Assembly (NCBI GenBank): GCA_041661045.1
Contig: JBAZVE010000001.1
Span: 120,001 to 152,000, forward strand
Source of the DNA: Candidatus Saccharimonadota bacterium
Lineage (GTDB): Bacteria > Patescibacteriota > Gracilibacteria > UBA1369 > 2-02-FULL-48-14
Length of the DNA stretch: 32,000 nt
Reading direction: 5' to 3'
The stretch's first letter is position 1; each line of letters starts with the position of its first letter. Below, piece by piece: positions 3,992 to 22,938 of this stretch. A model generated the notes under the pieces. The model saw only the letters and a program-made list of their open reading frames with translations, was not told the DNA's origin and ran no database searches. The position numbers and the translations under genes are program-made.

Positions 3992-4182
3992 CTACAGCCT
4001 GTTATCTCCCTTCAACACCAGCCAAACTCTTTTAAGTTACCTACAAATTTTTTGAAATGAAAGCCAGCGTACCAGAAGTATAGCCTTTTGTTATATTTCT
4101 TGTTGGTGTGACGGATTTTTATACCCTATCCAAATTCCACCTTTGAATTTATAAGTTTGATTCATGACTATTAGAAGTCTGT

Positions 4183-4530
4183 TTATTTTTCAAATGCAAG
4201 CCCTAAAAATTCTTTTTTTGAGCCAGTAAAAATTGTGCCTTTTTTATTTAATGTTTTATTAATCTTGCCTGTTTTTACTGCAATGTAAGCTGCATCACAT
4301 TCGGGGTCGTAACTTATACTGAGTTCATCTCCTTTTGAAAAATGAAAATCATTTACTATACATTTAGACTTGGTTTGATCCATCATGTCCAAAAGCTCTA
4401 TCCCTATAGTTTCACCAAGTGAATCTAAATCCACCATCAAATCAATGTTTTCAATTTTATGTGCACCCTCTGATGGTTTAAACTGGATTGAAAAAGTTTT
4501 ACCATTTTCAACAATATTTGGGTATTCCAT
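4183..4530 (-). CDS. DUF2283-like small protein (two degenerate units)
   Basis: Motifs LSISYDPECDAAYIAV and DLDSLGETIGIELLD resemble the DUF2283 pattern (YDxExDxxYI ... GxxxGIExL). Confidence 0.5.
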   Translation of the reverse strand: MEYPNIVENGKTFSIQFKPSEGAHKIENIDLMVDLDSLGETIGIELLDMMDQTKSKCIVNDFHFSKGDELSISYDPECDAAYIAVKTGKINKTLNKKGTIFTGSKKEFLGLAFEK

Positions 4531-4566
4531 GTGGGCTATGAGTTACTTAACTGTACAGGCTTGCCA

Positions 4567-4878
4567 CTAAGCAATGGGCAACAAAATGTATCTAGTCAAA
4601 ACCACACAAAGCAACGCGTATAGAACTATTAAAAGAACTTCTTCTCCTCTACTGATCGTTATCAACTTATTTTTTTTCTTATAGTAGTGAAAATAAAATC
4701 CGAAGAGAAATGCCATTAATAAAACAATACTTAATCTAACTAGGTTTGCCGCATCTATGTTTTCATAACTAAATCTATTGAACACGAGATAGCTAAGAAT
4801 AGAGAAAAAGACAAAGCCAGACACGAAAGTGGCACATAGAAGCAGCAAGTGTTTTAGAGCTTTGAAATGAGATTTCAT
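4567..4878 (-). CDS. Small membrane protein (about 3 TM helices)
   Basis: 103-aa ORF with hydrophobic stretches LLLLCATFVSGFVFFSILSYLVF, LVRLSIVLLMAFLFGFYF and VLLIVLYALLCVVL. No family recognised. Confidence 0.5.
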   Translation of the reverse strand: MKSHFKALKHLLLLCATFVSGFVFFSILSYLVFNRFSYENIDAANLVRLSIVLLMAFLFGFYFHYYKKKNKLITISRGEEVLLIVLYALLCVVLTRYILLPIA

Positions 4879-4896
4879 AATTTAGTTGTTAGATAT

Positions 4897-5289
4897 TTAT
4901 TCAACAGTATCGGGAACTTTTAATTCTTGGCCAACTTGAATCTGATTAGGGTAGTTGGATTTTGCTAGCGCATGAAGTTTTTTCGACACAGTCCTGGCTT
5001 CATCCCATGTGTAGCCAGTCATAGTATGCATTTCTTGTGGATCAACGATTTCTGCTGATATGTCAAAAATCTTCGACATAAGAATGATGTCATTTTCATC
5101 TATGCTAATCTCGATTACTTCATCTTCAGATCGATGACTTCCTATGAAATCACTAATCCTCCTACATTCTTCTTCTGATAGTTGGGTCCTTTGAATAAGC
5201 TCACTTAAACCAAAGGCGCCCAAGGGTACAGCTATAACTCTAATTATAATTTCTAATTCATCATGGGTAAGTAAAATTAATTTTGTCAT
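4897..5289 (-). CDS. Hypothetical acidic cytoplasmic protein with a weakly LysM-like C-terminus
   Basis: 130-aa ORF starting 18 nt upstream of the next gene's start. C-terminus ...SNYPNQIQVGQELKVPD resembles the end of a LysM domain. Confidence 0.5.
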   Translation of the reverse strand: MTKLILLTHDELEIIIRVIAVPLGAFGLSELIQRTQLSEEECRRISDFIGSHRSEDEVIEISIDENDIILMSKIFDISAEIVDPQEMHTMTGYTWDEARTVSKKLHALAKSNYPNQIQVGQELKVPDTVE

Positions 5290-5447
5290 AATGTGGTGAG
5301 TTAAAAACTATTAATGCAAATCATTGTCAAAAAAATCCTTTTCTTTTTCAGGTTGGAAGGCTGTCCCCTGATCTACATTGTTCGGATCGTGGATCACCAC
5401 AATAGTAATGATTTAAAAAATACCCGAGATTCCCTGCGAAAGTTTAT

Positions 5448-5747
5448 TTAGCTACTCTGTAACTTTACTCCACAGCGCGGGCAATGTTTAGGGTTAAAAT
5501 TCTTCCTCAAGTAAAATTCGCAAGCTGGGCAACGCCAATTTTTGAATGTAAAAACAACGGACCCCAAGAACATAAATACAAACAACATAGTCCAAGCGTC
5601 GTTTGGGGCACCAAGGAAAGTAATCCCCTCATCACTATTATTGAAAAATTGGAATCCAAAAACAATCACAAGCATCAGTGGCGTGACTATATAATATTGT
5701 TTTCGCTTTCTTTCCAGAAAATTTTGGATGATTTCGTACTCCTGCAT
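5448..5747 (-). CDS. Small membrane protein with a C-terminal zinc ribbon
   Basis: Two hydrophobic helices, then CPACEFYL...HCPRCGVKL (CxxC-N13-CxxC). Confidence 0.55.
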   Translation of the reverse strand: MQEYEIIQNFLERKRKQYYIVTPLMLVIVFGFQFFNNSDEGITFLGAPNDAWTMLFVFMFLGSVVFTFKNWRCPACEFYLRKNFNPKHCPRCGVKLQSS

Positions 5748-5756
5748 AATGTGGTC

Positions 5757-6296
5757 TTATTTTCTTGCTCTAAGTAATAATTTTACTTGAAGTAAATACA
5801 TTGGAATAAGTAACAACAATGAAATGGGAGATAACACTACTGTTACAAAAGAGAAGCCAAATATCAGTTCGACCCAGCCCGTTTTTTTCGTCAACCCCCC
5901 CATGGGATTTTTTAATTGGATTAAACTATAACCATGTAAAATGGTAAGCAAACCATATGTTATTCCAAAAGCTATATAAGCAGACGGATACTCATCGAGT
6001 TTTGAGGGATATGTGCTAATTTTTGGTAGATATACAAGAAGATCGTATGAAATATTAACCAAGATCAATAAAAAAGAGGAAACAGCGGTAACTTTACTAT
6101 TTTGTATTTGCCCCAAATAAATGAAGCCAGACAAAAACAGAGCATAACTAACGATTGATAAGAAAATCAGGGGGCCTAAGTTGAACTCAGGGAAATATGA
6201 ACCACCCTTGGCTTCTACTAGAAGTGTTAAAGGCACGCTTGAGATTAGTGATACTAACCCCGAGAAAGCAGCTAATTTAAAAAGATTTTTCTTCAT
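5757..6296 (-). CDS. Polytopic membrane protein; candidate immunity partner of the orphan RHS tip
   Basis: 179-aa ORF starting 7 nt after the stop of the orphan cassette. Five to six hydrophobic segments. No family recognised. Confidence 0.55.
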   Translation of the reverse strand: MKKNLFKLAAFSGLVSLISSVPLTLLVEAKGGSYFPEFNLGPLIFLSIVSYALFLSGFIYLGQIQNSKVTAVSSFLLILVNISYDLLVYLPKISTYPSKLDEYPSAYIAFGITYGLLTILHGYSLIQLKNPMGGLTKKTGWVELIFGFSFVTVVLSPISLLLLIPMYLLQVKLLLRARK

Positions 6297-6303
6297 AGTG
6301 CAT

Positions 6304-7248
6304 TTAGTTAGTATTTTCTTTTTCCGATTCTACCGGTATTCGAATCTCTTCACCAACATTAATAGTATTTGGATCTTCAAATCCATTAAACTCTGCAATT
6401 TCTTGATAGTCATCTCCAAAAAGTTCGTACATCGTATCGCCAGGTTGAACTGTATATACAGAATAGCCTCCCTCTTCATTATATGTAAGATCTTTTTCTT
6501 CTCCAAAAACAGTAATTAAGGTTTGTTCATAAACAAACATCCCAATTCTTACATACCAAGGTGCTTGGCCCTTTGTTGAGTGCCAGAGTACATCGTCCAT
6601 ATTGTTACTTATATCGCCATCATTGTGGTCGTTAGTTGGTCCGGAATTTATAAGGTCGCCAGAGTCACCTGCAGAAGGGATATCGCTAAAAAATGTTAGT
6701 AAATAACTCACAAATATTCCGATTGGAGTTTCTCCATCCGGATCTATATAGACAATTGGGTTATTTAAAGAATAAGAATAAAAATTCAACATCTGTGGGT
6801 CGAAGATTTTATTTTTCTTTAGAAATTCATTCATATCATTCGTGAATGTGAATTTCCTTTCAGCAAGGTCATCCAACTGTGCCGGATCCTGGCTGGAGAA
6901 TCTTCCTATCTCACTGTCATACCACCGGGCTTCGAAGTAGTAGAGGCCGAGGTCTTCATCGAGCTCTTTGTCTGTGAAGGAGTGCTCTGCGGGAGGCTCT
7001 CCGGTGCCGTCGTCCAGGGGAGTGTTTTGGAGCTCAGAGCCGTAGGGATAGTAGTCGTAAAGCTGGGTTACAAAACCATCCTCGTTCGTGATGAGGGCGG
7101 TTCCTCCCAAGTGGTCCTGGTGGAAATAGGAGAGGACTCCGTCTTCCAGTGCAGCCACCCTCTGGCCCCCGGCGAAGAGATAGCTGGTGAGGGTGCCGGG
7201 AGACACCGGTTCCGTTCCGCTGCCATCCGCTTTGCCGCGGAGTTCCAT
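6304..7248 (-). CDS. Orphan RHS C-terminal cassette: RHS core end plus a 141-aa variable tip with a LysM domain
   Basis: The frame stays open and homologous to the main RHS up to 7398 (NFNTAHTYSWNIKNQLASSGSKSFSYDASG...), bounded by an in-frame TGA at 7399-7401. The first ATG is at 7248. Core FTDKELDEDLGLYYFEARWYDSEIGRFSSQDP...NFYSYSLNNPIVYIDPDGE. LysM YTVQPGDTMYELFGDDYQEIAEFNGFEDPNTINVGEEIRIP. Confidence 0.8.
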   Translation of the reverse strand: MELRGKADGSGTEPVSPGTLTSYLFAGGQRVAALEDGVLSYFHQDHLGGTALITNEDGFVTQLYDYYPYGSELQNTPLDDGTGEPPAEHSFTDKELDEDLGLYYFEARWYDSEIGRFSSQDPAQLDDLAERKFTFTNDMNEFLKKNKIFDPQMLNFYSYSLNNPIVYIDPDGETPIGIFVSYLLTFFSDIPSAGDSGDLINSGPTNDHNDGDISNNMDDVLWHSTKGQAPWYVRIGMFVYEQTLITVFGEEKDLTYNEEGGYSVYTVQPGDTMYELFGDDYQEIAEFNGFEDPNTINVGEEIRIPVESEKENTN

Positions 7249-7433
7249 GAAGCGGTTGATGATGTAGTCCGTTGTGCCTTTTGTGCTGTCTGCCGTTTTG
7301 TAGCGGCTGCCTGAAGCATCGTAGGAGAAGGATTTAGAGCCGCTGGAAGCCAGCTGGTTCTTAATGTTCCAAGAATAAGTGTGGGCGGTGTTGAAATTTC
7401 AAGGAGCGATGATCTGAATTGATGGGGCACTTT

Positions 7434-8054
7434 TCACCATGAAAAAGAATTCTTAATGATTTTACCCAAAATATCCAACCAATTCAGCTCAGTGTCTGCA
7501 CCCACTTCGTAACAAGTACGAGCTTTCAAACAATCCTCTCCCGTGAGATCCATTTCAAACACCGCCCGATCAGTTTCAGGTATCTCTTCTAGAGATAAGT
7601 AATATTCCGCTTCACCACTTGTTATATCAAGCACAACAAACCTGGGGAGATCATTTTGGTCATCATACATTAGAATCTTTCCATTCGAAGTATCCACTCC
7701 TCCCCAGTAGCTTATATTTCCCTCTGCATCCGTTCCCGTACCCCTCTCAACATTTCCTTCTATGTATAGTTTATCTTCATGAAGTCTATACCAGTACAAG
7801 TATCGAACCAAATAATCATCATACTTAAAATCCATCAATTGGAGTTTCTCCATATCTGTGGGCCATCTCCAAACTTGGAACCTTCCATCACTAAAATGAA
7901 TATATTTATCTTGATCGTATATCTCATACTTTAAATTGGGATCTTTTTCAATGAAGATATAGGTTTCCAAGCAACCCCTAAAAAAGACTACTCCTAGAAG
8001 GACAAGGGCGATAATACCAACTGTCTTAGCCGTTTTTCTAGAAAGCTTATTCAT
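7434..8054 (-). CDS. N-terminally anchored 206-aa protein; candidate immunity protein of the main RHS tip
   Basis: ATG at 8054-8052 lies inside TATGAATAA, overlapping the RHS stop (8049-8047). Begins MNKLSRKTAKTVGIIALVLLGVVFFRGC. The longer 7434-8123 ORF would overlap the RHS gene by 77 nt. Confidence 0.65.
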   Translation of the reverse strand: MNKLSRKTAKTVGIIALVLLGVVFFRGCLETYIFIEKDPNLKYEIYDQDKYIHFSDGRFQVWRWPTDMEKLQLMDFKYDDYLVRYLYWYRLHEDKLYIEGNVERGTGTDAEGNISYWGGVDTSNGKILMYDDQNDLPRFVVLDITSGEAEYYLSLEEIPETDRAVFEMDLTGEDCLKARTCYEVGADTELNWLDILGKIIKNSFSW

Positions 8055-11000
8055 AGGTGTAATCAAAGTTAATGGATTCAGTAAATTCAGATATGAAGCC
8101 TGTGGTTTGTGCCGCAGCCGCACCAGTATTTAGTGCATCATATGTAGCCCCACCACTGTATTCAAATCCTGCATCGAAATGATACTTATCTGAAATGGAC
8201 ACATCTAAATCCCACGCACCATTTTCCAATTGGCTTCCCGTAACCTGCATCCCGGCTGTACCAATGGACATTTTCAAATCGGATGTTTCATTGAGACGCA
8301 GTCCCCTCTGCCCATCGGTACCTTCAATGGAAGTTTGCCCATTAAACTCTGCATTAGAAACAATTTCACCAACCTTGGATTGAAACTCATCCGTCCCCTT
8401 AATTGAATCAATCACATTCCCCCATTCAGACTGATTCCCTTCATTGATGCTCACGCTTCCGGGGTTCAGTTCAAGGGAGTGGGATAAGAGACTTGATGTG
8501 ATTGGGTTTGAAAACTGAAGACCCCATGCCAGTGTTAAACCTGCCGTATAGATTTCCCGCACACCTGGCACAAAAAATGTTGCCAGGTAGGTAGTTGTAG
8601 ATAACTCTCCCGTTGGATCTGTAATATTTACCGGATTATTCCTGCTGTAACTGTAGAAGTTCAAACTCTGCGGATCTGTGAGAATTTGGAAGATGCGGTC
8701 ATCCAGCTGGGCCGGGTCCTGGCTGGAGAAACGGCCTATGGCGCTGTCATACCACCGGGCTTCGAAATAGTAGAGGCCAAGGTCTTCATCGAGTTCTTTG
8801 TCGGTGAAGGAGTGGTCGGCGGGGGCAGGGCCGGAGCCGTCGTCCAGGGAGCTATCGAGGAGCTCGGAGCCGTAGGGATAGTAATCGTAAAGCTGGGTGA
8901 CGAAGCCTTCTTCGTTGGTGGTGAGGGCGGTGCCTCCCAAGTGGTCCTGGTGGTAATAAGTGAGGGCAGCATCTCCCACAGGAGTTTCCGGAGGGATTTT
9001 AAGTGCGGCCACTCTTTGGCTTCCCGCAAAGAGGTAATAGAGCTCCGTTCCATCGGAAGCGGGTTCGGAGCCGCTGCCATCCGCCTTGCCACGGAGTTCT
9101 CCGTAGCGGCCGAGGTAATAGTCCACGGTTCCCCTGGCAGAGTCCACCGTCTTCCAGCGGGTACCAGTGGCATCGTAACTGAAGGATTTACTTCCACTGC
9201 TGCTGAGCTGATTCTTTCTATCCCAGCTGTAGGTGTGAGCGGCATTGCCGGTGAGGTTTCCCTTGCTGTCGTAGGTGTATGCTATGCCATCCACAGAAGT
9301 CACGGCGTGGGGATTGGCGCCGCTGTGAGTGCCGGAAGAAGAACCGGTGCCCTCATAAAGCAGGCTGCCAATGTCGCTCTTGTACACCATGTTTCCAAGG
9401 CTGTCATACTCATAAGTCTCACTGTAGTCTCCTCCGCTTAGGCCGGTGGTCTCTGCGGAGAGCAGGCGATTCAAGTCATCGTAGGCATAGGAAATGGTTT
9501 TGGCCGTGGGGCTTGTGCTCGTGTCCAGAATCTCCAAAATGTTCCCGACATTGTCGTAGCTGTAGGAAAGATCCTGAATTTCCGTCCAGGAAGTGCTGGT
9601 GAAGAGAGGATCATAAATGCCCGTGGTGCTTTTGCCTGTGAGGCGATATGCCTGAGCGGGGTCGTAGACATTGGTGGTCACGGTGCCGTTCCCGTAAGTG
9701 GTGCTTGCCGTTTGGGAAGAGGGAGAATAGTCCATGTCGGAAACGATGTCTCGTAAAGTAGCGCCTGTCCCTTCGGTTACTTTTTCAAGAAGACCGGCTG
9801 TGTTGTATTCGTAATTTACGGTTGCTGCAAAAGAGGGATACGCAATCTTTTTCAGACGGCTGAGGACATCGTATTCATATTGAAAAATATACGGGATGGT
9901 GTCGAGCTTTCTTGTTTCTTTTGCAAGGTTCCCGAGGCTGTCGTATTTATCATTGATCACCGAGAAATTTGTCATCAAGATTTTGTGGATTTTGCCTACC
10001 CCATTGATCGCAGTATCGTAGACAAAGGAAACATCTTTGGCAGAAGTTCCGGCATCCCAATCTTCAAAAACCATCCGATTGAGCGGATCGTAGCCCCATG
10101 TGAGCGACTGGCCCGCGGGGTCCACTTGGGAGACTAGATTCCCATTTTTATCGTAGGTGTAAGTCCATTCTCCAAAATCCCCTTCGGCCGGATCATGGAG
10201 ATCTTCTTGCAGGGTTTTGCGCCCCAAAGAATCGTAGCCGAAGTTTCTTAAGTTGCCCTGGCTATCGGTAAGAGTGAGGAGCAGGCCACGGTCATCATAA
10301 TCGTAAGTCGTTGTGTAAGTATCTATTCCATTCTTCTCTCGTACGGCACTCAAAGCTCCGGCGGCGTTATAGAGATAGGTTTTGCTGTTTCCATTCCCAT
10401 CCGTGACCTCTTCCATCCATGGGGAATAGTCATGTGTTTCCGTAGAGACGGGGGTCACCACGGTGAGGGGCCGACTGAGTGCATCGTAAGACATTTCTGT
10501 GCTGTACGCAGAGGCGTCTCTACCAAATATGCTGCTTGAAGTTTCGTAAGGAAAACTTTGGCTGGCAAGGTTTCCCCGTTCGTCGTACCAAAAGTCTACG
10601 GTCGTGTAGACCCCGCCCTCTGCTGAAGTATTGCTTTGGATGGCCCGTCCGAGGCCGTCAAAATAACTTACGGTTTCCATGGAAATGCCATCCACCGTGC
10701 TTTCCGTGGAGACGGAGCTTGGGAAGGAGTCGTCATCGTAGCTGCTTGTAGACACCAGCACCGAAGTCCCAAAGGTGGGATGCGGAATGGAGCTTGTTAA
10801 CACTCGCCCAAAGCCGTCGTAAGTGTTTGAGCGCGTAAAGCCATTTGCGTCCACGGAGCTGAGGAGTTGTCCGGTAGCTGCTTCGTATACGGTACTCGTT
10901 GTTTGTGAAAGGGCATTCGTTGTGCTTGCTGGGTAAAGATTGTTTGAATCATAGTTCATGTCCAGCGCGTTTCCCTTGGCATCCACTACTCGCTCAACGA

Positions 11001-13821
11001 GTCCATAAGCATTGACTGTGTAGGTGGAGCCAAACCATTGATTCCCTTCACTGAGCCAAGATTTTTCACTCGTAAGATTCCCCGTGGAAACATTCCCGAG
11101 CGGGAGGCCGTCGTAGGTGCGACGGCTTTTAGCGATTGCGGAGCCGCTTGCATCTTTCAAGATCTCTTCTGAGATTTTGTTGCGAATTAGCCCGGAGCTG
11201 TCCGCTGCGTACGCATAGGATAGTACGGTTTTTTCGTGCGCATGAGGAATATCCACAAATCCTCCGCTGCTGTCCGCCGCCACTTCACCGAAGTTTGTAA
11301 CTTTAAATATATTTCCGTCCGCATCGTATTGATAAGTTGTAGCTTTGTCCTTGTGAGCGCTGCCACCGAAGTCCATGGAAACACTGGCGGTTTTGTACAC
11401 AAAATCATTTTCATAGCCAAGATCCAAGGTTTCCCACGAGTCCCAGACTCTTTGGAAAAGATTGCCGGACTCATCATAAACTTCCGTTTTATAGGCGCGG
11501 CCGATGAGTGGAAACTCTTCTTGATGGTAATAAGAAATGGTTTCCTTTCCCTCCTCACTGCGCGACACCGTTTCGAAGCCGGCGAACTGACGGTTCATTT
11601 CATCTTCATACAAATATTTTCCACCGGAGTAGTCGTAGGTGATGGTGCTTTCTTCCCCAAGGCCATCCGAAGTGGTGACACTGGAGACCAAGTTCATCAC
11701 AAAGGGCATGGCGGGGTTATCGAAAGAGGTGGAGGGCGCATAGGAAACTGTGGTTTCCGCCCCTTTGGAGTGATGAATGGTTTCGAGCAGTTCTGGAGTG
11801 GCGTTGTTGAGATACATTCTTTTAGTGCTGCCCCCATGGGACTCAGAAAAAACCACATCCGCAAAGTTATCCCCATCCACATCAAAAATCTGAACGCCTT
11901 TTGGGGTTCTATAACCTTCTGCAAAACTCACGGGGACCGTATAAGCACTGCCTTCGTCCCATCCCGTCCCATCTCCCTTATTAATATATACGGCATTCTC
12001 AATGCTGGAATCTGCCGAGTAAACAATGTCCGCTAAGCCATCTCCATTGACATCCACCATTTCTGCAACATCCATCATGATATCTCCGCTATCCCAGAAA
12101 TAGATTGGGATGCTATAACTACTTTCTTCAGTCCACCCCGTTCCATCGCCACGATTGAGATAAACAGATTGGTAGGGACTCCCTTGATACCTTGATTCTA
12201 TAATATCCACCAAGCCATCTCCATTAATGTCTGCCAGTTTTACACCCTCGTCATCCTCTCCTTCAGAATTAAAAATAACTGGTATGGATATCTCGCTCAC
12301 TTCTTCCCATGTTTCCATTTCTGGATTGAAGAGGTAGATATTCTTTGAAATACCACCGTGACTCAAAGACTGAACAAAGTCAGGGAAAGAGTCTCCATTG
12401 ATGTCCATAACACGAATCCCCTCATCGGCCATATAACCACTATTGAACCTTAGTGGAATCGAGTAAGTGGTGTCTTCAACCCAAGAGGAAGACGCCTCGT
12501 CAAAGATGTAGCCTACCCGAACATCGCTAGAGGATTCCATGGAAGCATAAACGATATCGTTGAATCCATCTCCGTTCAAATCACTCATACGCGTACCCCT
12601 CATATAATTTCCTCCTGTTCCCCAAAAAGAGACAGGAATTGAATAGCTTGTATCTTCGGTCCAGCCTGTTCCATCGCCGTTATTCACATAGACCTCTCGG
12701 TAAGTTCTTCCACTATCGTAGTAGGAATTGAGAAGATCCATAAATCCATCCCCATTGACATCACTGATGTCCACACCTTTATCTTCATTTCCTCCCTCCA
12801 CATAAAAATACACCGGGATCTCGTAGCCGCTTACTTCTTCCCAGCCTTTTTCGCTCTCGGAATATTCAAAACTTGTAGGGTGGAGCGTGCTTACTTCACC
12901 AGTCGTGCTTTGAGCGGATTCCGTGACAGAAGAGAGTAAGGATTGAACGGTGTCGTCCGGGGTGGAGTAATCGAGACTGTATTTTCGAGTCCATACCCCA
13001 TCAACAAATGCGGTGATCTCACTGACTCGATAATCGGTTTGAACTTCAAAGCCGGTATTGTAAAAAGAAGAAACATCTTCTCGGCTCTCCAAAGTGAATT
13101 CAATGGCAAAAGATCCATCGGTGGATCCATGTCCGGTATAATGGATGCTTTCTGGATAAATTTGCCCATTCTCTTCAAAGTATTCGTATCGTACAAAGTT
13201 ATCATTGGAGTCTCGCACTTCCTCAAGCATCCACTTGTAGACGCGGCTTGCATCTGCCGGGTCCTCTTGCCTACTTTCAGCGGCTGCCCCAAAACTATAA
13301 ACGGTTCCGGACTTATCTGTAACAGACCAAGAGTTGTCCGAATTGAATGAGTAATTTAGAAAAGAGCCATCCTCGACTTTACTGCTGTACTCCCCGTAAG
13401 GACTTCCACTTATGGGAACAAGCTCTCCACTGAGTGAAGAACTAAAATTGTTTTCGTCGTACATGGTATTTACACCGGTTTTGTTGAGTCGCGTGATTGC
13501 AGGGATACCCAGTGACCAACCGGATCCATAAAAACTATCCCAGCCCATGCCTTGGCTGTTGTAGTTTAGGCTGAGAGAGGGCTGCAAGCCACTGCGCCCC
13601 GCAGGCAGAGTGAGGGGAAGAGAATAAGTGAAAGCTCCACTAAAAGAGCTGTCTTGCGCACCTTGGTCCAATCGAACCCGACTGTTATTGATTTCGTAAG
13701 TCTGATCATAAAACCCTTCGTTGTTATTTGTAGCATCTGCAAAGCTTCTAGGCGCGAAACTTGTGAATGCAAAAAAACTCAGCAGAAGGGTGGATAGGGC
13801 TCTCACTTTTTGGCTGAGCAT
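8047..13821 (-). CDS. Secreted SpvB / FG-GAP / RHS-repeat polymorphic toxin (TcB-TcC-like fusion), 1,924 aa
   Basis: Signal peptide MLSQKVRALSTLLLSFFAFTSFAPRSFA. SpvB-like FTYSLPLTLPAGRSGLQPSLSLNYNSQG..GWSLGIPAITR. Six DxNGDGxxD FG-GAP/VCBS repeats (aa ~350-660). Many YD repeats. RHS core end ...YYFEARWYDSAIGRFSSQDP...NNPVNITDPTGE. Confidence 0.95.
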   Translation of the reverse strand: MLSQKVRALSTLLLSFFAFTSFAPRSFADATNNNEGFYDQTYEINNSRVRLDQGAQDSSFSGAFTYSLPLTLPAGRSGLQPSLSLNYNSQGMGWDSFYGSGWSLGIPAITRLNKTGVNTMYDENNFSSSLSGELVPISGSPYGEYSSKVEDGSFLNYSFNSDNSWSVTDKSGTVYSFGAAAESRQEDPADASRVYKWMLEEVRDSNDNFVRYEYFEENGQIYPESIHYTGHGSTDGSFAIEFTLESREDVSSFYNTGFEVQTDYRVSEITAFVDGVWTRKYSLDYSTPDDTVQSLLSSVTESAQSTTGEVSTLHPTSFEYSESEKGWEEVSGYEIPVYFYVEGGNEDKGVDISDVNGDGFMDLLNSYYDSGRTYREVYVNNGDGTGWTEDTSYSIPVSFWGTGGNYMRGTRMSDLNGDGFNDIVYASMESSSDVRVGYIFDEASSSWVEDTTYSIPLRFNSGYMADEGIRVMDINGDSFPDFVQSLSHGGISKNIYLFNPEMETWEEVSEISIPVIFNSEGEDDEGVKLADINGDGLVDIIESRYQGSPYQSVYLNRGDGTGWTEESSYSIPIYFWDSGDIMMDVAEMVDVNGDGLADIVYSADSSIENAVYINKGDGTGWDEGSAYTVPVSFAEGYRTPKGVQIFDVDGDNFADVVFSESHGGSTKRMYLNNATPELLETIHHSKGAETTVSYAPSTSFDNPAMPFVMNLVSSVTTSDGLGEESTITYDYSGGKYLYEDEMNRQFAGFETVSRSEEGKETISYYHQEEFPLIGRAYKTEVYDESGNLFQRVWDSWETLDLGYENDFVYKTASVSMDFGGSAHKDKATTYQYDADGNIFKVTNFGEVAADSSGGFVDIPHAHEKTVLSYAYAADSSGLIRNKISEEILKDASGSAIAKSRRTYDGLPLGNVSTGNLTSEKSWLSEGNQWFGSTYTVNAYGLVERVVDAKGNALDMNYDSNNLYPASTTNALSQTTSTVYEAATGQLLSSVDANGFTRSNTYDGFGRVLTSSIPHPTFGTSVLVSTSSYDDDSFPSSVSTESTVDGISMETVSYFDGLGRAIQSNTSAEGGVYTTVDFWYDERGNLASQSFPYETSSSIFGRDASAYSTEMSYDALSRPLTVVTPVSTETHDYSPWMEEVTDGNGNSKTYLYNAAGALSAVREKNGIDTYTTTYDYDDRGLLLTLTDSQGNLRNFGYDSLGRKTLQEDLHDPAEGDFGEWTYTYDKNGNLVSQVDPAGQSLTWGYDPLNRMVFEDWDAGTSAKDVSFVYDTAINGVGKIHKILMTNFSVINDKYDSLGNLAKETRKLDTIPYIFQYEYDVLSRLKKIAYPSFAATVNYEYNTAGLLEKVTEGTGATLRDIVSDMDYSPSSQTASTTYGNGTVTTNVYDPAQAYRLTGKSTTGIYDPLFTSTSWTEIQDLSYSYDNVGNILEILDTSTSPTAKTISYAYDDLNRLLSAETTGLSGGDYSETYEYDSLGNMVYKSDIGSLLYEGTGSSSGTHSGANPHAVTSVDGIAYTYDSKGNLTGNAAHTYSWDRKNQLSSSGSKSFSYDATGTRWKTVDSARGTVDYYLGRYGELRGKADGSGSEPASDGTELYYLFAGSQRVAALKIPPETPVGDAALTYYHQDHLGGTALTTNEEGFVTQLYDYYPYGSELLDSSLDDGSGPAPADHSFTDKELDEDLGLYYFEARWYDSAIGRFSSQDPAQLDDRIFQILTDPQSLNFYSYSRNNPVNITDPTGELSTTTYLATFFVPGVREIYTAGLTLAWGLQFSNPITSSLLSHSLELNPGSVSINEGNQSEWGNVIDSIKGTDEFQSKVGEIVSNAEFNGQTSIEGTDGQRGLRLNETSDLKMSIGTAGMQVTGSQLENGAWDLDVSISDKYHFDAGFEYSGGATYDALNTGAAAAQTTGFISEFTESINFDYTYE
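8050..8604 (-). other. Variable C-terminal tip (185 aa) of the RHS protein, after DPTGE
   Basis: Sequence after DPTGE (LSTTTYLATFFVPGVREIYTAGL...INFDYTYE) has no similarity to the orphan tip beyond the first ~12 residues and matches no family I recognise. Confidence 0.7.
8605..9249 (-). repeat. RHS core-end block homologous to the orphan cassette at 6730-7398
   Basis: The protein alignment is continuous from AHTYSW to DPxGE. DNA stretches are near-identical, e.g. gtcataccaccgggcttcgaa(a/g)tagtagaggcc(a/g)aggtcttcatcgag. Confidence 0.85.
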
Positions 13822-13834
13822 AGCACATTTATTA

Positions 13835-13927
13835 AATTGCCCTTACTATTCTCCACTGCCCCCGCCCTTGTCCAGGCTTTCGGCACATTTACTGTCGTCA
13901 GGATTGGATGACAGTTTGTGGTTTAGA
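13835..13927 (-). promoter_or_regulatory. Upstream leader copy B (inverted copy of 611-702) in front of the RHS gene
   Basis: 13886-13927 is the exact reverse complement of 611-652. Diverged similarity continues to 13835, and the RHS ATG follows at 13821. Confidence 0.65.
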
Positions 13928-13985
13928 AACTGGACGACATGAGCTTTTAGGCGTAGAGTACACTTAAATTTACCCCTTCCCCCTC

Positions 13986-15584
13986 ATGAAAAATATTCTT
14001 ATTGCCCTTCTGAGTCTTATGCTTGCCGTCCCTGGTGTGCTGGCGTCCGCCAATGCTGATATGAGCGACTCTGAGCTGGGAGAATATTTTATATTTGAGA
14101 CGGGGACCTGGTGGGATTATGTGAATTATATAGACACCGCTTCCGACTACGACACCTCAGAGATTACTTTTGTGGATGATATTGAAGATGCCACGACGCG
14201 TGCAGAGAGACTTCCCTGCAGAATTTCTCAATGTTTTAGCGTGGGTATGGGGCAAATCTACATCGAGTACTTTATAGAAGATGGGAAAATTTACATGGAT
14301 ACTTACGACGGGTACGACACGAATGATTTTCTGGTTTTCTCTCTTGATGGACTCGAGGATGTCCAAGTTGATGCATTGTGGGGATATCTTTTGGGTTATG
14401 ACAGTTTGAGTGGTTACGAGACCAGCATGCAATGTAGTGTGGACTTCGGAACTTACGCCTATCAAGGCTACGAAGGTGATTCCATCCAACACACTTGCAG
14501 CACTTTCCTAAAAGGTCCGGATGAAGTGGAACACCAAGTGGTGAGCTCCGAGTACTACTTGAGAGGCGTTGGGAAAGTCTTAACCGAGACCAAGCTCTAT
14601 CAGGACGGCGAGTGGCAAATCACTTATAGCCTTGTGCTCAATGAAACCAGCGTTGATTTGGAGGAAGTTGAAGGTCTGACTGAAGAAGCGGATGGAAAGG
14701 AAGTGATCGATACGGTGGTGGAAGAAATGAATGAAGAAGAAGAGGAAGAAGAGGAAGAAGAGGTGGTTTTGGCGGCGGAAGAAAGTAGCTTCTCCGATGT
14801 CGAATCGGATCACGATAACTACGCAGCGGTTGAATATCTCTACGAAGAAGGTGTGATTGGAGGATATGAGGATGGATCCTTTAAACCTGAGAATACCGTG
14901 AATCGTGCCGAGCTTCTGAAGATTTTGGTGGAAGGCCAGGGCATCACACCGGATGCAGAGCTCTATAAAAACTGTTTCCCCGATGTCACTACAGACTGGT
15001 ATGCCAAATATGTATGCTACGCCAAAAGCCAAGCGTGGATTTCCGGCTATAGCAACGGATACTTTCTTCCTGCCGATCCTGTAAATAAAGTGGAGGCCCT
15101 CAAAATGCTGCTCAATTCTCAAAGTATTGAGATCACCGTTGGAGACCAAAGCTCATTTGATGACTTCTCTGAGAATGAATGGTTCGCCCCTTATGTGGCC
15201 AAAGCTCAAGCACTTGGGATTTTGGAGGAAACCGGCAGTAGTTTTCATGCCGATGAGGATCGAACGCGTGGTGGCATCAGTGAAAATTTGTATCGGCTTC
15301 TCTTGAGTCTTCAGGTTGATGGCGTCTCCAGCGCCATGTCTGAAACTACTTGTCTGCAATACGACGCTTCCTTCGACCTGGATGAGTTCGAAGCAGAAAC
15401 GGAGGACATTATGGAGGCGTACGGATTTGAAGACATTTGGGCGATCGATGCCTTTATTGACCAGATTAGGGGCCTGGATATCTTTGAGCTTCTGTCTGCC
15501 CAACTGGAGATGGACCTTGAAGAAGAGTGTGGAGAATCCGTTGATGATGCTTCCGCGCTGGCTGAGGCCATGTTGGAGGAATAA
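13986..15584 (+). CDS. Secreted cell-surface protein with three SLH domains and an acidic linker
   Basis: Signal peptide MKNILIALLSLMLAVPGVLASANA. SLH motifs FSDVESDHDNYAAVEYLYEEGVIGGYEDGSFKPENTVNRAELLKIL, FPDVTTDWYAKYVCYAKSQAWISGYSNGYFLPADPVNKVEALKML and FDDFSENEWFAPYVAKAQALGIL. Confidence 0.85.
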   Translation: MKNILIALLSLMLAVPGVLASANADMSDSELGEYFIFETGTWWDYVNYIDTASDYDTSEITFVDDIEDATTRAERLPCRISQCFSVGMGQIYIEYFIEDGKIYMDTYDGYDTNDFLVFSLDGLEDVQVDALWGYLLGYDSLSGYETSMQCSVDFGTYAYQGYEGDSIQHTCSTFLKGPDEVEHQVVSSEYYLRGVGKVLTETKLYQDGEWQITYSLVLNETSVDLEEVEGLTEEADGKEVIDTVVEEMNEEEEEEEEEEVVLAAEESSFSDVESDHDNYAAVEYLYEEGVIGGYEDGSFKPENTVNRAELLKILVEGQGITPDAELYKNCFPDVTTDWYAKYVCYAKSQAWISGYSNGYFLPADPVNKVEALKMLLNSQSIEITVGDQSSFDDFSENEWFAPYVAKAQALGILEETGSSFHADEDRTRGGISENLYRLLLSLQVDGVSSAMSETTCLQYDASFDLDEFEAETEDIMEAYGFEDIWAIDAFIDQIRGLDIFELLSAQLEMDLEEECGESVDDASALAEAMLEE

Positions 15585-15648: not shown

Positions 15649-17733
15649 GTGAAAAACTTAAAGAAAATTTGGTTTGGAGGAGTGGCGACGGCCGTGATTC
15701 TTGCGGCATGTTTGGGCTTTAGAGCCTCCGGAGTTTTGGAGGGGATGCAGCAGAATTTGAGCACCAAACTTTATAGTGAGAGAGAACTTCTGGAAGACAT
15801 TGTGATTGTGGCGATTGATGAAAAAAGTCTTTCTGCACCTGAGCAGGGTGGCTTAAGTGGATTTCAATCGTGGTCACGCAAGACTTATGCGGATACGCTG
15901 AGCACCATTGAAAAGGGGGAGCCGGCGGTGGTGTTTTTTGATGTTTTGTTTTCGTCGGAATCCAATGGAATTAAATCGGATGAATTGATCTCCACCGTCC
16001 AAGAAAGCGAAAGCCCCATGGCCTTTGCCGAAGCGGTGATTGCGTATGCTCAGAGTCCGCATCCCTATGACCAATATTTTGCGACTGTGCTGCGCCAGTA
16101 TGACAATGTTATCCTCATGAAAAATACGCTGGGAGTGGTGGCGTGGAATGGGCATGCGTTTGAAATTCCAGCGGAGACAAGACCTCTCGAATTGTTTGCA
16201 CAGGCCGCCAAGCTGGCGTTCACCACTGTGATTGATACTGAAGAAGGACAAAACTCCAGTATTATTTTTGCCATCCCCACTCAGTTTGAGCTGGATGGGG
16301 TCACCGAAGAACATATTGACCTGCAGTTGGCTCGTATTTACAAACAAAGCAAGGGCGAGGATTTGGAGGTTTTGGCGGAAGATGGAGAAATGCTCATCAA
16401 CTATGCGGCTCCGTCTTATAGCGTTCCCATGGTTTCTTTTTCCGATGTTTATTACTCCCGCGTGGATCCAAAAATCTTTGAGGGAAAAATTGTTTTGATT
16501 GGAGCCACGGCAGCACTTTTGCAGGATCGTCATTTCACTCCCATCGACTTGAATCGCCCCATGCCCGGAGTGGAAATTCACGCCCATGCCATACAAACTT
16601 TACTTGAGGGGAAATTCTTGCTGCACCAAGGTCTGGGTGGTTTCATCCTTTTGGTGGGTGGGCTTTCTTTGTTTTTTATGGCGGTGTTTTTGTGGACCCC
16701 GGTGCTTGTGGGCGGCGTGGCTTTGCTTATGGGGCTCGGTGCCTTCCCTTTTTATGCGCAATGGGCATTTAACCGAGGCACCGTTGTGAGTTTGATTTGG
16801 CCTGTGTTTGCCATGATTGCCGCCTTTTTAGCCGCACTGGCTTACCGAAATTTCACGGAGTTTGCGGAGAAGCGGAAACTCAAAAACGCATTCTCACACT
16901 ATGTTTCCCCCGAGCTTGCCGAGGAAATTACGGAGAAGCCTGAGAATTTAAAACTGGGAGGAGAACGAAGAAATATCACTGCATTGTTTTTGGATATCGA
17001 AAACTTCACCAACTTGAGTGAGGGGATGGAACCGCAGGAAGTGGTGAAGGTCATCAACACTTATTTTGATGCTCTGTCTCAAGTGATCATGCACTTTGGC
17101 GGAAGCGTGGACAAATACGAAGGCGATGCGATTATGGCGCTGTTTGGTGCGCCGGTTCCCAGCACGAATCATGCGATAGCGGCTTGCCACAGTGCTTTGG
17201 CGATTGTGGAAAAAATGAAGGAACTGAATGCGGAGACGGGCCACTCCTTAAAGATTCGGATTGGGCTGGCCACAGGAGATGCGATTGTGGGCAATATGGG
17301 ATCTTCCCAACGCTTTGATTACACCGCCATGGGCGACATTGTAAACACCGCTTCCCGCTTGGAAGGGGCCAATAAATTTTATGGCACCGGGATTTTGGTC
17401 AACGAAGGAACTTATGAAGCGGCGAAGGGGGAAATCTTTTTCCGATCGGTGGATCGAGTGTGCTTGAAAGGCAAGGATCAAGTGATTTCTATTTTCCAAG
17501 TTATGGGCCCGCAAGAGGGTGTGAGTGCGGATGGAAAAAAATTGGTGGAAGAGTGGAACAGCGCACTTGAAGACTATCGCAATGCGCGATGGGATGAGGC
17601 CGAAAAAAAGATGCAGGTGGTGCTCCAAAAACTTCCGGACGATGGCCCTGCTCAAACCCTTTTGGGGCGCATCACTCAACTGCGGCTACGACCTGGAAGC
17701 TGGGATGGAGTCTGGCGCTTTGACGAGAAGTAA
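15649..17733 (+). CDS. CHASE2 sensor domain-containing class III adenylate/guanylate cyclase
   Basis: N-terminal TM, extracytoplasmic CHASE2-like region, three TM helices (aa ~330-400). Cyclase motifs ITALFLDIENFTNLSE, KYEGDAIMALFGAP, IRIGLATGDAIVGNMGS and DYTAMGDIVNTASRLE. Confidence 0.9.
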   Translation: MKNLKKIWFGGVATAVILAACLGFRASGVLEGMQQNLSTKLYSERELLEDIVIVAIDEKSLSAPEQGGLSGFQSWSRKTYADTLSTIEKGEPAVVFFDVLFSSESNGIKSDELISTVQESESPMAFAEAVIAYAQSPHPYDQYFATVLRQYDNVILMKNTLGVVAWNGHAFEIPAETRPLELFAQAAKLAFTTVIDTEEGQNSSIIFAIPTQFELDGVTEEHIDLQLARIYKQSKGEDLEVLAEDGEMLINYAAPSYSVPMVSFSDVYYSRVDPKIFEGKIVLIGATAALLQDRHFTPIDLNRPMPGVEIHAHAIQTLLEGKFLLHQGLGGFILLVGGLSLFFMAVFLWTPVLVGGVALLMGLGAFPFYAQWAFNRGTVVSLIWPVFAMIAAFLAALAYRNFTEFAEKRKLKNAFSHYVSPELAEEITEKPENLKLGGERRNITALFLDIENFTNLSEGMEPQEVVKVINTYFDALSQVIMHFGGSVDKYEGDAIMALFGAPVPSTNHAIAACHSALAIVEKMKELNAETGHSLKIRIGLATGDAIVGNMGSSQRFDYTAMGDIVNTASRLEGANKFYGTGILVNEGTYEAAKGEIFFRSVDRVCLKGKDQVISIFQVMGPQEGVSADGKKLVEEWNSALEDYRNARWDEAEKKMQVVLQKLPDDGPAQTLLGRITQLRLRPGSWDGVWRFDEK

Positions 17734-19346: not shown

Positions 19347-20017
19347 TGTTTCCAGGGGTCAGAGGAATGGGTGATATGTGGACCTTTTAAGTACAGTGGC
19401 TCAACTGTGTTTTTTTCTTCCAGCTGCTCCACTCCGTGTGTCATCAACATCTCTCCAAGGGTCTGCAGTTCGTGACCTTCCACCACTCTCCACTTTTTTT
19501 CGAGTATGAGCGAGTGCAATTCTTCTTGCAGGGTTTCATTCAATTGTGCCACGACGCAAATGCCGCTTCCGTGCGGGTAGTCTTTGAGCAAAGGCGCAAG
19601 CATTCCCACCTTTATTTCTTCATCTTGGAATTGTACTCCGGCGTCCATGCGGCCTGCGTGCAAAATCACCAGGATCGGATCTGCAAGTGCCGCTTTTCTC
19701 CTTAAAAGCTCAAAGGTGTCGATGGCATAGAGCTTGGCGTGGAGCCCTTCCGCCAGAGCATTGGCAAAAGCAACTCCGGTACGAAGCGCCGTGAAGGAGC
19801 CCGGCCCTCGAACCACAATAATTTGCTTTATTTCTTCTTTTTGCGTGCCCGTTTCTTCCAAAAGTTTTTTTAAAAAAGCTGGTAATTCTTCCACCGCATT
19901 CCGTGTGTCGAGCCAAATTTTCTCGCTGATGAGCTCCCATTCGCCCGGACTGGCTGGGTTCTCACGCAAAAGCGCCATTTCGTGCTGAACCTGTGCGGTA
20001 TTGATGGCTAATATCAT
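19343..20017 (-). CDS. tsaB: tRNA threonylcarbamoyladenosine (t6A) biosynthesis protein TsaB
   Basis: ILAINTA..., IIVVRGPGSFTALRTGVAFANALAEGL. 4-nt overlaps with both neighbouring genes. Confidence 0.85.
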   Translation of the reverse strand: MILAINTAQVQHEMALLRENPASPGEWELISEKIWLDTRNAVEELPAFLKKLLEETGTQKEEIKQIIVVRGPGSFTALRTGVAFANALAEGLHAKLYAIDTFELLRRKAALADPILVILHAGRMDAGVQFQDEEIKVGMLAPLLKDYPHGSGICVVAQLNETLQEELHSLILEKKWRVVEGHELQTLGEMLMTHGVEQLEEKNTVEPLYLKGPHITHSSDPWKQ

Positions 20018-22851: not shown

Positions 22852-22938
22852 CTTGTTATTATAACATTTTTTGAGCCTTTTCTCAATGCGGCGATTGTGA
22901 TAAACTTCCCACACTTTTTATTTAATTACAACTCCCCC

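Follow-up and report, generated by a model that had tools for sequence, protein, structure and literature searches.

A polymorphic Rhs toxin locus that belongs to the TcdB/TcaC class, carried by an uncultured, ultra-small, Peribacteria-like bacterium from the candidate phyla radiation (CPR), is the reading that we prefer for the gene on the minus strand at positions 8047–13821 of the window. The window is the whole stretch of 32,000 nucleotides (nt) that was analysed, taken from Candidatus Saccharimonadota bacterium (contig JBAZVE010000001.1, positions 120,001–152,000). According to this reading, to which we assign a probability of roughly 60%, a precursor of 1,924 amino acids (aa) is exported by Sec, encloses a colicin M-like tip in a cocoon and is accompanied by an immunity gene and a spare cassette. 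The TcdB/TcaC class was described in 2012 by Zhang, de Souza, Anantharaman, Iyer & Aravind (PMC3482391); it combines a signal peptide, SpvB, an integrin-like β-propeller, RHS repeats and a variable C-terminal toxin, and is known from many bacterial phyla and from Euryarchaeota (PMC3482391). The window locus fits this definition exactly, including the adjacent immunity gene and the spare cassettes: SpvB with a propeller, an RHS core with a variable tip, a downstream immunity candidate and an orphan cassette were all found. The phylum list of 2012 does not contain CPR/Patescibacteria, the source of most of the best homologues identified here, and the tip and immunity families of the window have no Pfam model, save for one DUF3997 match. 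An earlier note on this DNA had framed the protein as a Tc toxin short of its partner. That framing was given up, as the architecture is that of the published TcdB/TcaC polymorphic class (PMC3482391), which has no TcA, so that the missing TcA is no anomaly.

The gene is an uninterrupted open reading frame (ORF) of 1,924 codons from ATG to TAA, and the same product was obtained from independent NCBI and Logan gene calls, in agreement with the single ORF of the earlier note. From the ORF and from Pfam, NCBIfam and PDB sequence matches, the product was assigned as a fusion of SpvB, FG-GAP propeller, RHS shell, Rhs core and toxin tip, i.e. as a TcB–TcC-like cocoon. Residues 1–28 (13738–13821, minus strand) were read from the sequence as a predicted Sec signal peptide with cleavage after SFA; the N-terminus, MLSQKVR-ALSTLLLSFFAFTSFA-PRSFA↓DA, has the n/h/c layout of such a peptide, and a hydrophobic N-terminus is kept across 20 homologues (alignment A2), which bears out the signal peptide proposed before, as a prediction. 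The SpvB/TcB N-terminal domain follows at aa 59–224 (13150–13647; Pfam SpvB, 7.4e-23). A six-bladed FG-GAP/VCBS β-propeller occupies aa ~340–662 (11836–12804; Pfam FG-GAP_3, 2.8e-22; FG-GAP, 3.9e-13). It contains exactly six D-x-N/D-G-D-x-x-x-D (DxNGDGxxD) motifs, starting at aa 354, 414, 473, 531, 590 and 647, and the blades are also visible in the DNA as six repeats with a spacing of 171–180 nt. The TcdB middle/N region lies at aa 640–756 (11554–11904; Pfam TcdB_toxin_midN, 4.6e-20); TcdB_toxin_midC had no match in the protein at E ≤ 0.01 (Pfam). The YD/RHS repeat shell was mapped to aa ~757–1646 (8884–11553; Pfam RHS_repeat, 2e-29; NCBIfam YD_repeat_2x) and the Rhs-associated core, with the presumed self-cleavage site at its end, to aa 1647–1738 (8608–8883; NCBIfam TIGR03696, 1.9e-18). 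The profile check proposed for the N-terminal SpvB and FG-GAP regions was thus run with a positive result, and each of the elements listed in the earlier note (SpvB, six FG-GAP blades, RHS shell and RHS core end) was matched by profile searches.

The core ends in NNPVNITDPTG (PxxxxDPxG), of which P1730, D1735 and G1738 are invariant in 20 homologues. The PxxxxDxxG motif is required for the self-cleavage of TcC (PMC7861908). Both core strings quoted before, ARWYDSAIGRFSSQDP and NNPVNITDPTGE, are present in the product. A search of PDB sequences matched aa 60–146 to TcdB1 and YenB, the SpvB region also to SpvB chains, aa 1357–1738 to residues 261–663 of TccC2 and the RHS shell to Rhs proteins of type VI secretion systems (T6SS; PDB entries 8qja, 7q97 and 8cp6). 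The TcdB1/YenB match at the N-terminus and the TccC2 match at aa 1357–1738 uphold the description of the protein as a TcB–TcC-like cocoon. No surface anchor (SLH, LPXTG or transmembrane) was found in the mature 1,924-aa protein by Pfam scan, and no PAAR, VgrG or T6SS families were found in the protein or in the window ORFs scanned (Pfam and NCBIfam).

The toxin tip comprises aa 1739–1924 (8050–8607, minus strand), with the colicin M-like domain at approximately aa 1771–1924 (8050–8511). The variable C-terminal tip predicted in the earlier note is present, with 186 residues after DPTG and not 185. It carries the motifs HSLxxNP, GD, NGxW and D-K-Y-H-F (8176–8190). Using phmmer against 1.84 billion cluster representatives, the tip module was found in 88 representatives at E ≤ 1e-3 and in 28 at E ≤ 1e-10. 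The match ends within ~30 residues of the C-terminus in 86 of the 88, the proteins that carry it being 82–3,258 aa long; one representative is from Candidatus Uhrbacteria. Ten representatives were scanned for domains: eight have RHS repeats (one of these with SpvB and FG-GAP as well), a Peptidase_C39 domain is present in one, and two gave no domain match. A word-indexed homologue search with the tip returned no match and missed the parent protein too, which marks a limit of the index, and when the tip alignment was run as a profile against PDB sequences, a single chance-level match resulted. In an alignment of 43 tip sequences the conserved motifs are L-x-HSL-x-x-NP, GDL, NG-x-W and D-x-Y-[DNH]-F, the last followed by NN-x-A-x-x-x-Q-x-x-G-x-I-x-x-Y; in the tip numbering of this alignment D111 is invariant, and D141, Y143 and Q168 are nearly so.

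A model of the tip calculated by AlphaFold2 from the 43-sequence alignment (A3) had a pLDDT of 87.8 and a pTM of 0.81; it replaced a single-sequence model with a pLDDT of 32, which was discarded. When this model was compared with the PDB using Foldseek, the top 12 matches were all of the colicin M family (structures of BtpeA-CTD, pectocin M1, colicin M, pectocin M2, syringacin M and PaeM), with probabilities of 0.82–1.00 for the top ten. The best match was Bacteroides fragilis BtpeA-CTD (E = 9.6e-4, probability 1.00, TMq 0.51), and the matches below the top 12 were unrelated folds with probabilities of 0.5 or lower. For a comparison of profiles, a nine-sequence profile of the ColM domain was built from the colicin M sequence, five database homologues and the PDB sequences of syringacin M and PaeM; the colicin M sequence used differs from the PDB deposit in one residue. 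The alignment of the tip profile with this profile in hhalign gave E = 7.9e-5 and a score of 33.5, where 30 column-shuffled templates scored 15.3 or less. It pairs the GD of the tip with the GD of ColM, NGAW with NGSW and D-K-Y-H-F with D226-K-Y228-D229-F; in an extended alignment of low confidence the His of HSL also pairs with the invariant His of the AHY motif of ColM.

The resemblance of the tip to colicin M is well supported but remote, and on the evidence of the model the tip is best described as a remote colicin M-fold domain: the fold search returned the colicin M family, whereas the Pfam model and the complete catalytic signature were not found. With the colicin M family (ColM, PaeM, syringacin M and pectocins M1 and M2; PF14859) it has in common the predicted fold, the His, GD, NGxW and D-x-Y. 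It differs in that the H-R of DxYDx5HR is missing and D229 is replaced by His, and in that an Rhs cocoon stands here in the place of the receptor-binding and translocation domains. A true PF14859 ColM domain on an Rhs-type core does exist (protein P0234), and colicin M domains are building blocks of polymorphic toxins with diverse membrane-associated immunity proteins (PMC5821083). Burroughs, Aravind and coworkers (eLife, 2025) described a novel colicin M-fold toxin domain at the tips of polymorphic toxins (PMC12419801), paired with a membrane-anchored immunity protein that acts outside the cytoplasm (PMC12419801). The examples given there, which may or may not be of the same sequence family, are fusions to cystatin-like lipoproteins with BamE-like immunity, whereas the carrier here is an SpvB–RHS protein. 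Lipid II hydrolysis is the leading hypothesis for the proposed activity of the tip, which would probably attack lipid II, a cell-wall precursor, from outside the target membrane.

Directly downstream, a gene for a protein of 206 aa (7434–8054, minus strand) is the candidate cognate immunity gene. Its ATG overlaps the last codons and the stop of the toxin gene (...ACC TAT GAA TAA, which contains ATGAATAA), so that it begins 8 nt before the end of the toxin ORF. The protein has a positively charged N-terminus and a single strong hydrophobic helix (aa 7–35), followed by a soluble domain with a C-x5-C pair near its C-terminus. Its predicted topology, with the N-terminus inside and the domain outside, is the same as in Cmi, which gives immunity to colicin M and consists of a periplasmic domain that a single helix anchors in the membrane (PMC5821083). 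Such an outward-facing immunity protein points to action outside the cytoplasm.

The linkage of tip and partner was followed in seven loci of the tip family: the window, an orphan cassette in a Peribacteria metagenome-assembled genome (MAG; L003) and five loci retrieved via tip-family proteins, namely four Rhs proteins (three with the SpvB cap) and one Peptidase_C39 protein from Uhrbacteria. In all seven, a protein of 143–234 aa is encoded on the same strand, 0–13 nt after the toxin gene or overlapping it, and each of these proteins has a charged N-terminus and one N-terminal transmembrane (TM) helix. Most of the seven are recognisably related to each other. The 206-aa protein of the window matches its counterparts in L088 (5.7e-10 over 174 aa), L087 (4e-8), L003 (7e-7) and L086 (6e-5), with no significant match to those of L084 or L085; the L084 protein is linked via L086–L088 and the L085 protein only marginally. 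A motif [VI][LI][DN][IT]-x-[ST]G[EDA] near the C-terminus is shared by six of the seven, L085 being without it. Pfam gave a single match for the seven candidates, to DUF3997, and the immunity domain had nothing below E = 0.8 among PDB sequences. A tip so closely linked with a small protein that varies along with it is what marks a toxin–immunity pair, and the 206-aa protein is accordingly named here as a candidate for the cognate partner. In the Uhrbacteria locus (L086, 3001–5325; MBI4599212.1) the tip sits on a 535-aa Peptidase_C39 protein without RHS repeats and is still followed by a homologous TM-anchored protein, so that the pair moves between delivery scaffolds. In a Peribacteria Rhs protein (L007, 13–5805) the tip profile matches twice, at the C-terminus (aa 1765–1927) and internally (aa 1345–1467); the internal match may be a duplicated module or an assembly artefact.

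Past the immunity candidate lies an orphan Rhs cassette (6304–7395, minus strand), which consists of a core fragment (Rhs_assc_core, 3e-18) with its own tip of ~140 aa that ends in LysM (1e-6 and 2e-7). Homology to the core of the main gene resumes 39 nt past the immunity-gene stop (orphan NTAHTYSWNIKNQLASSGSKSFSYDASG..., main gene GNAAHTYSWDRKNQLSSSGSKSFSYDATG...), and a 282-nt stretch of the orphan core is 83% identical to the main-gene core at the DNA level. An in-frame stop precedes the fragment, and the M at 7248 is its first possible start codon. The portion of its tip outside LysM (~90 aa) gave no match. A 179-aa membrane protein (5757–6296, minus strand), multi-pass to judge from its hydropathy, comes directly after the orphan tip and is by this position a candidate immunity protein for it; it has no Pfam match. 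The LysM (peptidoglycan-binding) tip and the multi-pass membrane protein suggest a second envelope-directed toxin–immunity pair.

The low-GC tail of the island (4183–5747, minus strand; GC 31–39%) holds four small ORFs that may belong to the system. They encode a TM protein of 99 aa that ends in a zinc ribbon, a protein of 130 aa, a multi-TM protein of 103 aa and a DUF2283 protein of 115 aa, and could be what is left of immunity genes or orphans from earlier cassettes. The GC content falls from 56% at the end of the main core to 44% over the tip and 38% over the gene that follows it, stands at 54% in the orphan core, 35% in the orphan tip and 34% in the membrane protein, and is 31–39% down to 4183. 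The layout is that of a classic Rhs locus, with a conserved core, horizontally acquired tip and immunity cassettes and a silent spare cassette. The small proteins that the earlier note saw as neighbours are indeed present; the overlapping immunity candidate, the start-less orphan core with its tip and the drops in GC had been overlooked there. A scan for promoters and terminators over 4000–14200 was uninformative, with counts equal to the shuffled expectation.

The genetic code was considered, since UGA is read as Gly (code 25) in some Gracilibacteria. TGA is the stop codon of 6 of the 26 window ORFs, some of them at tight gene junctions, so that table 11, the standard bacterial code, applies and code 25 was rejected. 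Readthrough of the immunity-gene TGA was likewise rejected, as it would run out of frame over the orphan Rhs core. The 120-aa ORF at 7068–7430 (minus strand), which lies in frame past that TGA and out of frame on the orphan core, is spurious under code 11.

From these data the following mechanism is proposed. The signal peptide would direct the 1,924-aa precursor to Sec, and outside the cell the protein would fold, as its homology suggests, into an RHS cocoon of the TcB–TcC type closed by the six-bladed propeller. The aspartyl-protease motif of the core, to judge from its conserved residues, would cut after DPTG (DPTG↓E) and leave the 186-aa tip inside the cocoon, to be released on contact with a target; the cocoon might open when a surface receptor of the target acts on the gate formed by the propeller. 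The tip, as a divergent colicin M-like domain, would most likely degrade or bind lipid II at the outer face of the target cytoplasmic membrane. The product of the overlapping gene would be the cognate immunity protein, anchored by its one N-terminal helix with the domain facing outwards as in Cmi. The start-less orphan core, LysM tip and membrane protein would constitute a spare toxin–immunity cassette, which could replace the active tip by recombination through the ~83%-identical core. The targets would be other bacteria, whether competitors, kin or the host cell. A tip that acts outside the target cytoplasmic membrane needs neither a TcA channel nor entry into the cytoplasm, and should this tip be colicin M-like and act there, its delivery would largely cease to be a problem.

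Several points weigh against the reading of the locus as a TcdB/TcaC toxin with a lipid II-directed tip. The tip has no match in Pfam or NCBIfam, and none to PF14859 (Colicin_M) even at E ≤ 10. The assignment to colicin M is remote: the Foldseek TM-scores are modest (0.31–0.51) with E-values of about 1e-3, and the hhalign probability is only 61%. The catalytic signature of colicin M, DxYDx5HR (PMC5821083), is incomplete, as the window has D1876-K-Y1878-H-F and no conserved H-R after it, and the tip enzyme could work differently or be inactive. The immunity domain shows no detectable similarity to Cmi/YebF. The signal peptide, self-cleavage, encapsulation and immunity are all deduced from sequence, and the search for TcA reached the window and a further 10 kb of a source genome of 1.3 Mb. 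Finally, in relatives the same chassis bears nucleases, for which entry into the cytoplasm is a necessity, so that the argument that no translocator is needed covers this tip and not the whole family.

In one alternative, the same Rhs cocoon and immunity protein go with a tip of colicin M-like fold with another envelope activity than that of a lipid II phosphatase, such as binding of another lipid carrier, membrane perturbation or a hydrolase reaction of some other kind. The missing H-R half of the ColM signature, the absence of a Pfam ColM match and the fourth position of the motif, which varies between D, N and H across the tip family (His in the window; only D and Y are near-invariant), all speak for it. 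Moreover, there are documented ColM-like domains whose motifs are degenerate and whose activity is uncertain (PMC5821083), and an outward-facing immunity protein would suit any extracytoplasmic target. On the other hand, the D and Y that are near-invariant in the family fall on D226 and Y228, the catalytic residues of ColM, the His and the GD align too, and all significant fold matches are lipid II-degrading bacteriocins or their T6SS relative. We consider this alternative possible, though rather unlikely.

The search for a TcA partner covered the window ORFs, 10 kb past the right end of the window and the flanks (up to 10 kb on each side) of 80 related loci. No TcA, T6SS or type VII secretion system (T7SS) family was found in any window ORF scanned, and no TcA was found in the 10 kb past the right end; a TcA gene immediately outside the window would, by the earlier note, have made the protein a conventional ABC toxin. 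The remainder of the window and these 10 kb contain housekeeping genes or small genes without matches. The flanks of the 80 loci contain 140 stop-to-stop ORFs of at least 500 aa that are unlike the Rhs protein; the 17 largest were scanned with Pfam, and none matched a TcA family. They include RpoB, RpoC, LeuRS, ClpB, an AddA-type helicase, an IS66 transposase, surface Ig/fn3 proteins, an LCAT-type lipase, a KAP NTPase and an amidase–SpoIID protein; two have marginal matches only (CBM_5_12 and DUF4082). Three have no Pfam match (L022, 2–5986, 1,995 aa and cut at the locus end; L013, 2774–6310, 1,179 aa; L073, 2994–6380, 1,129 aa), and a very divergent partner among them is a residual possibility. 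Clustering of all flank ORFs of the 80 loci revealed no conserved partner gene and no translocator-like family. The recurrent flank families are histidine kinases, ABC transporters, TrmB regulators (in seven loci, the window included), recombinases, IS200 transposases and Barstar. Hence two observations of the earlier note hold within this scope: no TcA-like partner is in view in the window, the adjoining 10 kb or the 17 largest flank ORFs, and no T6SS or T7SS component is present in the window ORFs scanned.

These searches bear on a second alternative, in which the protein is the B–C subunit of a conventional ABC (Tc) toxin aimed at eukaryotic cells, with TcA encoded elsewhere in the 1.3-Mb genome. 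The SpvB domain, six-bladed propeller, TcdB_midN region and TccC-like core are all there, and RHS shell and PxxxxDPxG core are further features in common with the Tc B–C cocoons TcdB2–TccC3, TcdB1–TccC2 and YenB–YenC. Both B–C fusions and tcC genes remote from tcA occur in nature (PMC7861908), an example of a fusion being B. pseudomallei ABA52082.1, and the 42 kb searched around the gene are a part of the genome. Nevertheless, no TcA family was found in those 42 kb or in the largest ORFs beside the 80 loci, the tip matches an antibacterial fold, the immunity gene and orphan cassette mark a system that is dangerous to bacteria, and relatives carry antibacterial tips with Barstar. A survey of Tc loci placed ~96% of them in Proteobacteria (PMC7861908). 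The protein has a predicted signal peptide, whereas Tc toxins are released by lysis (PMC10847048). The upstream position in which tcA sits in a tc operon is taken here by a divergent SLH gene. Canonical TcB is not known to have a signal peptide. Overall, a conventional ABC toxin appears very improbable.

Equally improbable is a teneurin-like surface protein for adhesion to or recognition of a host, whose tip would be vestigial or serve in signalling. Ligand binding is frequent among FG-GAP propellers, most CPR bacteria live as episymbionts and teneurins reuse the RHS-plus-propeller scaffold for adhesion, but the self-cleavage motif is invariant in 20 homologues, relatives swap the tip for known nucleases and peptidases, an immunity-type gene is tightly linked and co-varying in seven of seven loci, and the mature protein has no SLH, LPXTG or TM anchor.

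As proposed for the window protein, WapA of Bacillus subtilis and the T6SS Rhs effectors (RhsA, Tse5 and Rhs1) have an RHS cocoon around a self-cleaved C-terminal toxin, with downstream immunity and orphan cassettes. WapA is exported by Sec without a dedicated injector; it lacks the TcB-type SpvB and propeller cap that the window protein has. The T6SS Rhs effectors have a PAAR/VgrG domain and T6SS genes, neither of which is present in the window protein or the window.

The closest species-representative genomes (53–56% identity) are 'Candidatus Peribacteria' MAGs. Among the best 120 protein homologues, most entries that carry a name belong to CPR/Patescibacteria (Gracilibacteria, Falkowbacteria, Komeilibacteria, Paceibacterota, Parcubacteria and others), and the best 80 genomic loci mostly carry CPR lineage labels; the minority consists of Bradyrhizobium, Bacteroidales, Niastella, Methanoperedens and about ten third-party annotation (TPA) MAGs labelled Gammaproteobacteria. 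All relatives keep the SpvB/FG-GAP/RHS chassis, and homologues of 31–57% identity differ only past the core. The C-termini of ten sampled homologues are PT-TG, colicin E5 tRNase, Ntox44, Ntox21, HNH, a barnase-type ribonuclease, a VanY/M15 peptidase, Ntox28, Tox-REase-7 and EndoU, and the homologue tips span nine different Pfam toxin families. Barstar genes are found near the Rhs gene in five related loci; in the one example checked, Barstar comes directly after it. Of 64 related loci, 23 have orphan core fragments downstream of the gene, with as many as four in an array. In the closest Peribacteria relative (L003, 874–7173) the full-length Rhs protein ends in a short hydrophobic Gly/Ala-rich tip (…GFILVGIISGIAAVATSWIPGAGEVFAWIAFGSFAAAGVIE…), which is followed by a 180-aa multi-TM protein; the arrangement resembles a toxin that inserts into membranes, paired with an immunity protein of the membrane, and envelope-directed tips may be common in this clade.

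The locus is a textbook polymorphic Rhs toxin system, and conceptually nothing is changed by it. Its contribution lies in the remote colicin M-like tip, in a new family of immunity proteins and in its occurrence in CPR. The SpvB–propeller–RHS chassis is very common in CPR/Patescibacteria, and a full-text literature search retrieved no paper that addresses RHS toxins or this chassis in these bacteria. Genomes of ~1 Mb that give 6–9 kb to one toxin gene plus spare cassettes suggest that antagonism matters for the lifestyle. The toxin and immunity families form a new pair without Pfam models, with 88 toxin representatives and a TM-anchored partner in seven of seven loci, and yield a testable hypothesis, attack on lipid II from outside the membrane. 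For this protein the missing TcA has a simple explanation, as its target is probably outside the cytoplasm. A bolder proposal is that Sec-exported, TcA-independent B–C cocoon toxins are a signature weapon of CPR/Patescibacteria against host bacteria, with a propeller gate opened by a receptor and a lipid II-destroying tip that lyses host or prey. In Tc toxins it is docking of the propeller onto TcA that opens the gate. We regard this proposal as speculative and doubtful; if true, it would amount to a new way of opening an Rhs cocoon and to the first molecular handle on how CPR bacteria kill or exploit their hosts.

The gene upstream of the toxin gene, at 13986–15584, encodes a divergent SLH protein (SLH, 4.8e-26), as the earlier note had stated. 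Its suggestion that delivery of the tip might be tied to an SLH-anchored envelope found no support, as SLH genes do not recur beside the Rhs gene in the related loci. Beyond the SLH gene follow a CHASE2 adenylate cyclase, DUF1189, a methyltransferase, a TsaB-like protein, a 966-aa amidase–SpoIID protein and RNase H. The 966-aa protein (20014–22914, minus strand) combines Amidase_2, Ig-like/CARDB repeats and SpoIID. A 1,107-aa counterpart of the same architecture is encoded in a Patescibacteria MAG at a distance of ~5 kb from the Rhs gene (L023, 21213–24533), and the CHASE2 adenylate cyclase (15649–17733) is also found near the Rhs gene in L002, L006 and L023; these shared neighbours hint at partial conserved synteny. 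In 17 of the 80 loci (L014, L020, L021 and L025 among them) a histidine kinase gene (HisKA and HATPase_c) is found no more than 10 kb from the Rhs gene, with none in the window; their recurrence could reflect regulation of the toxin, or merely the size of the family.

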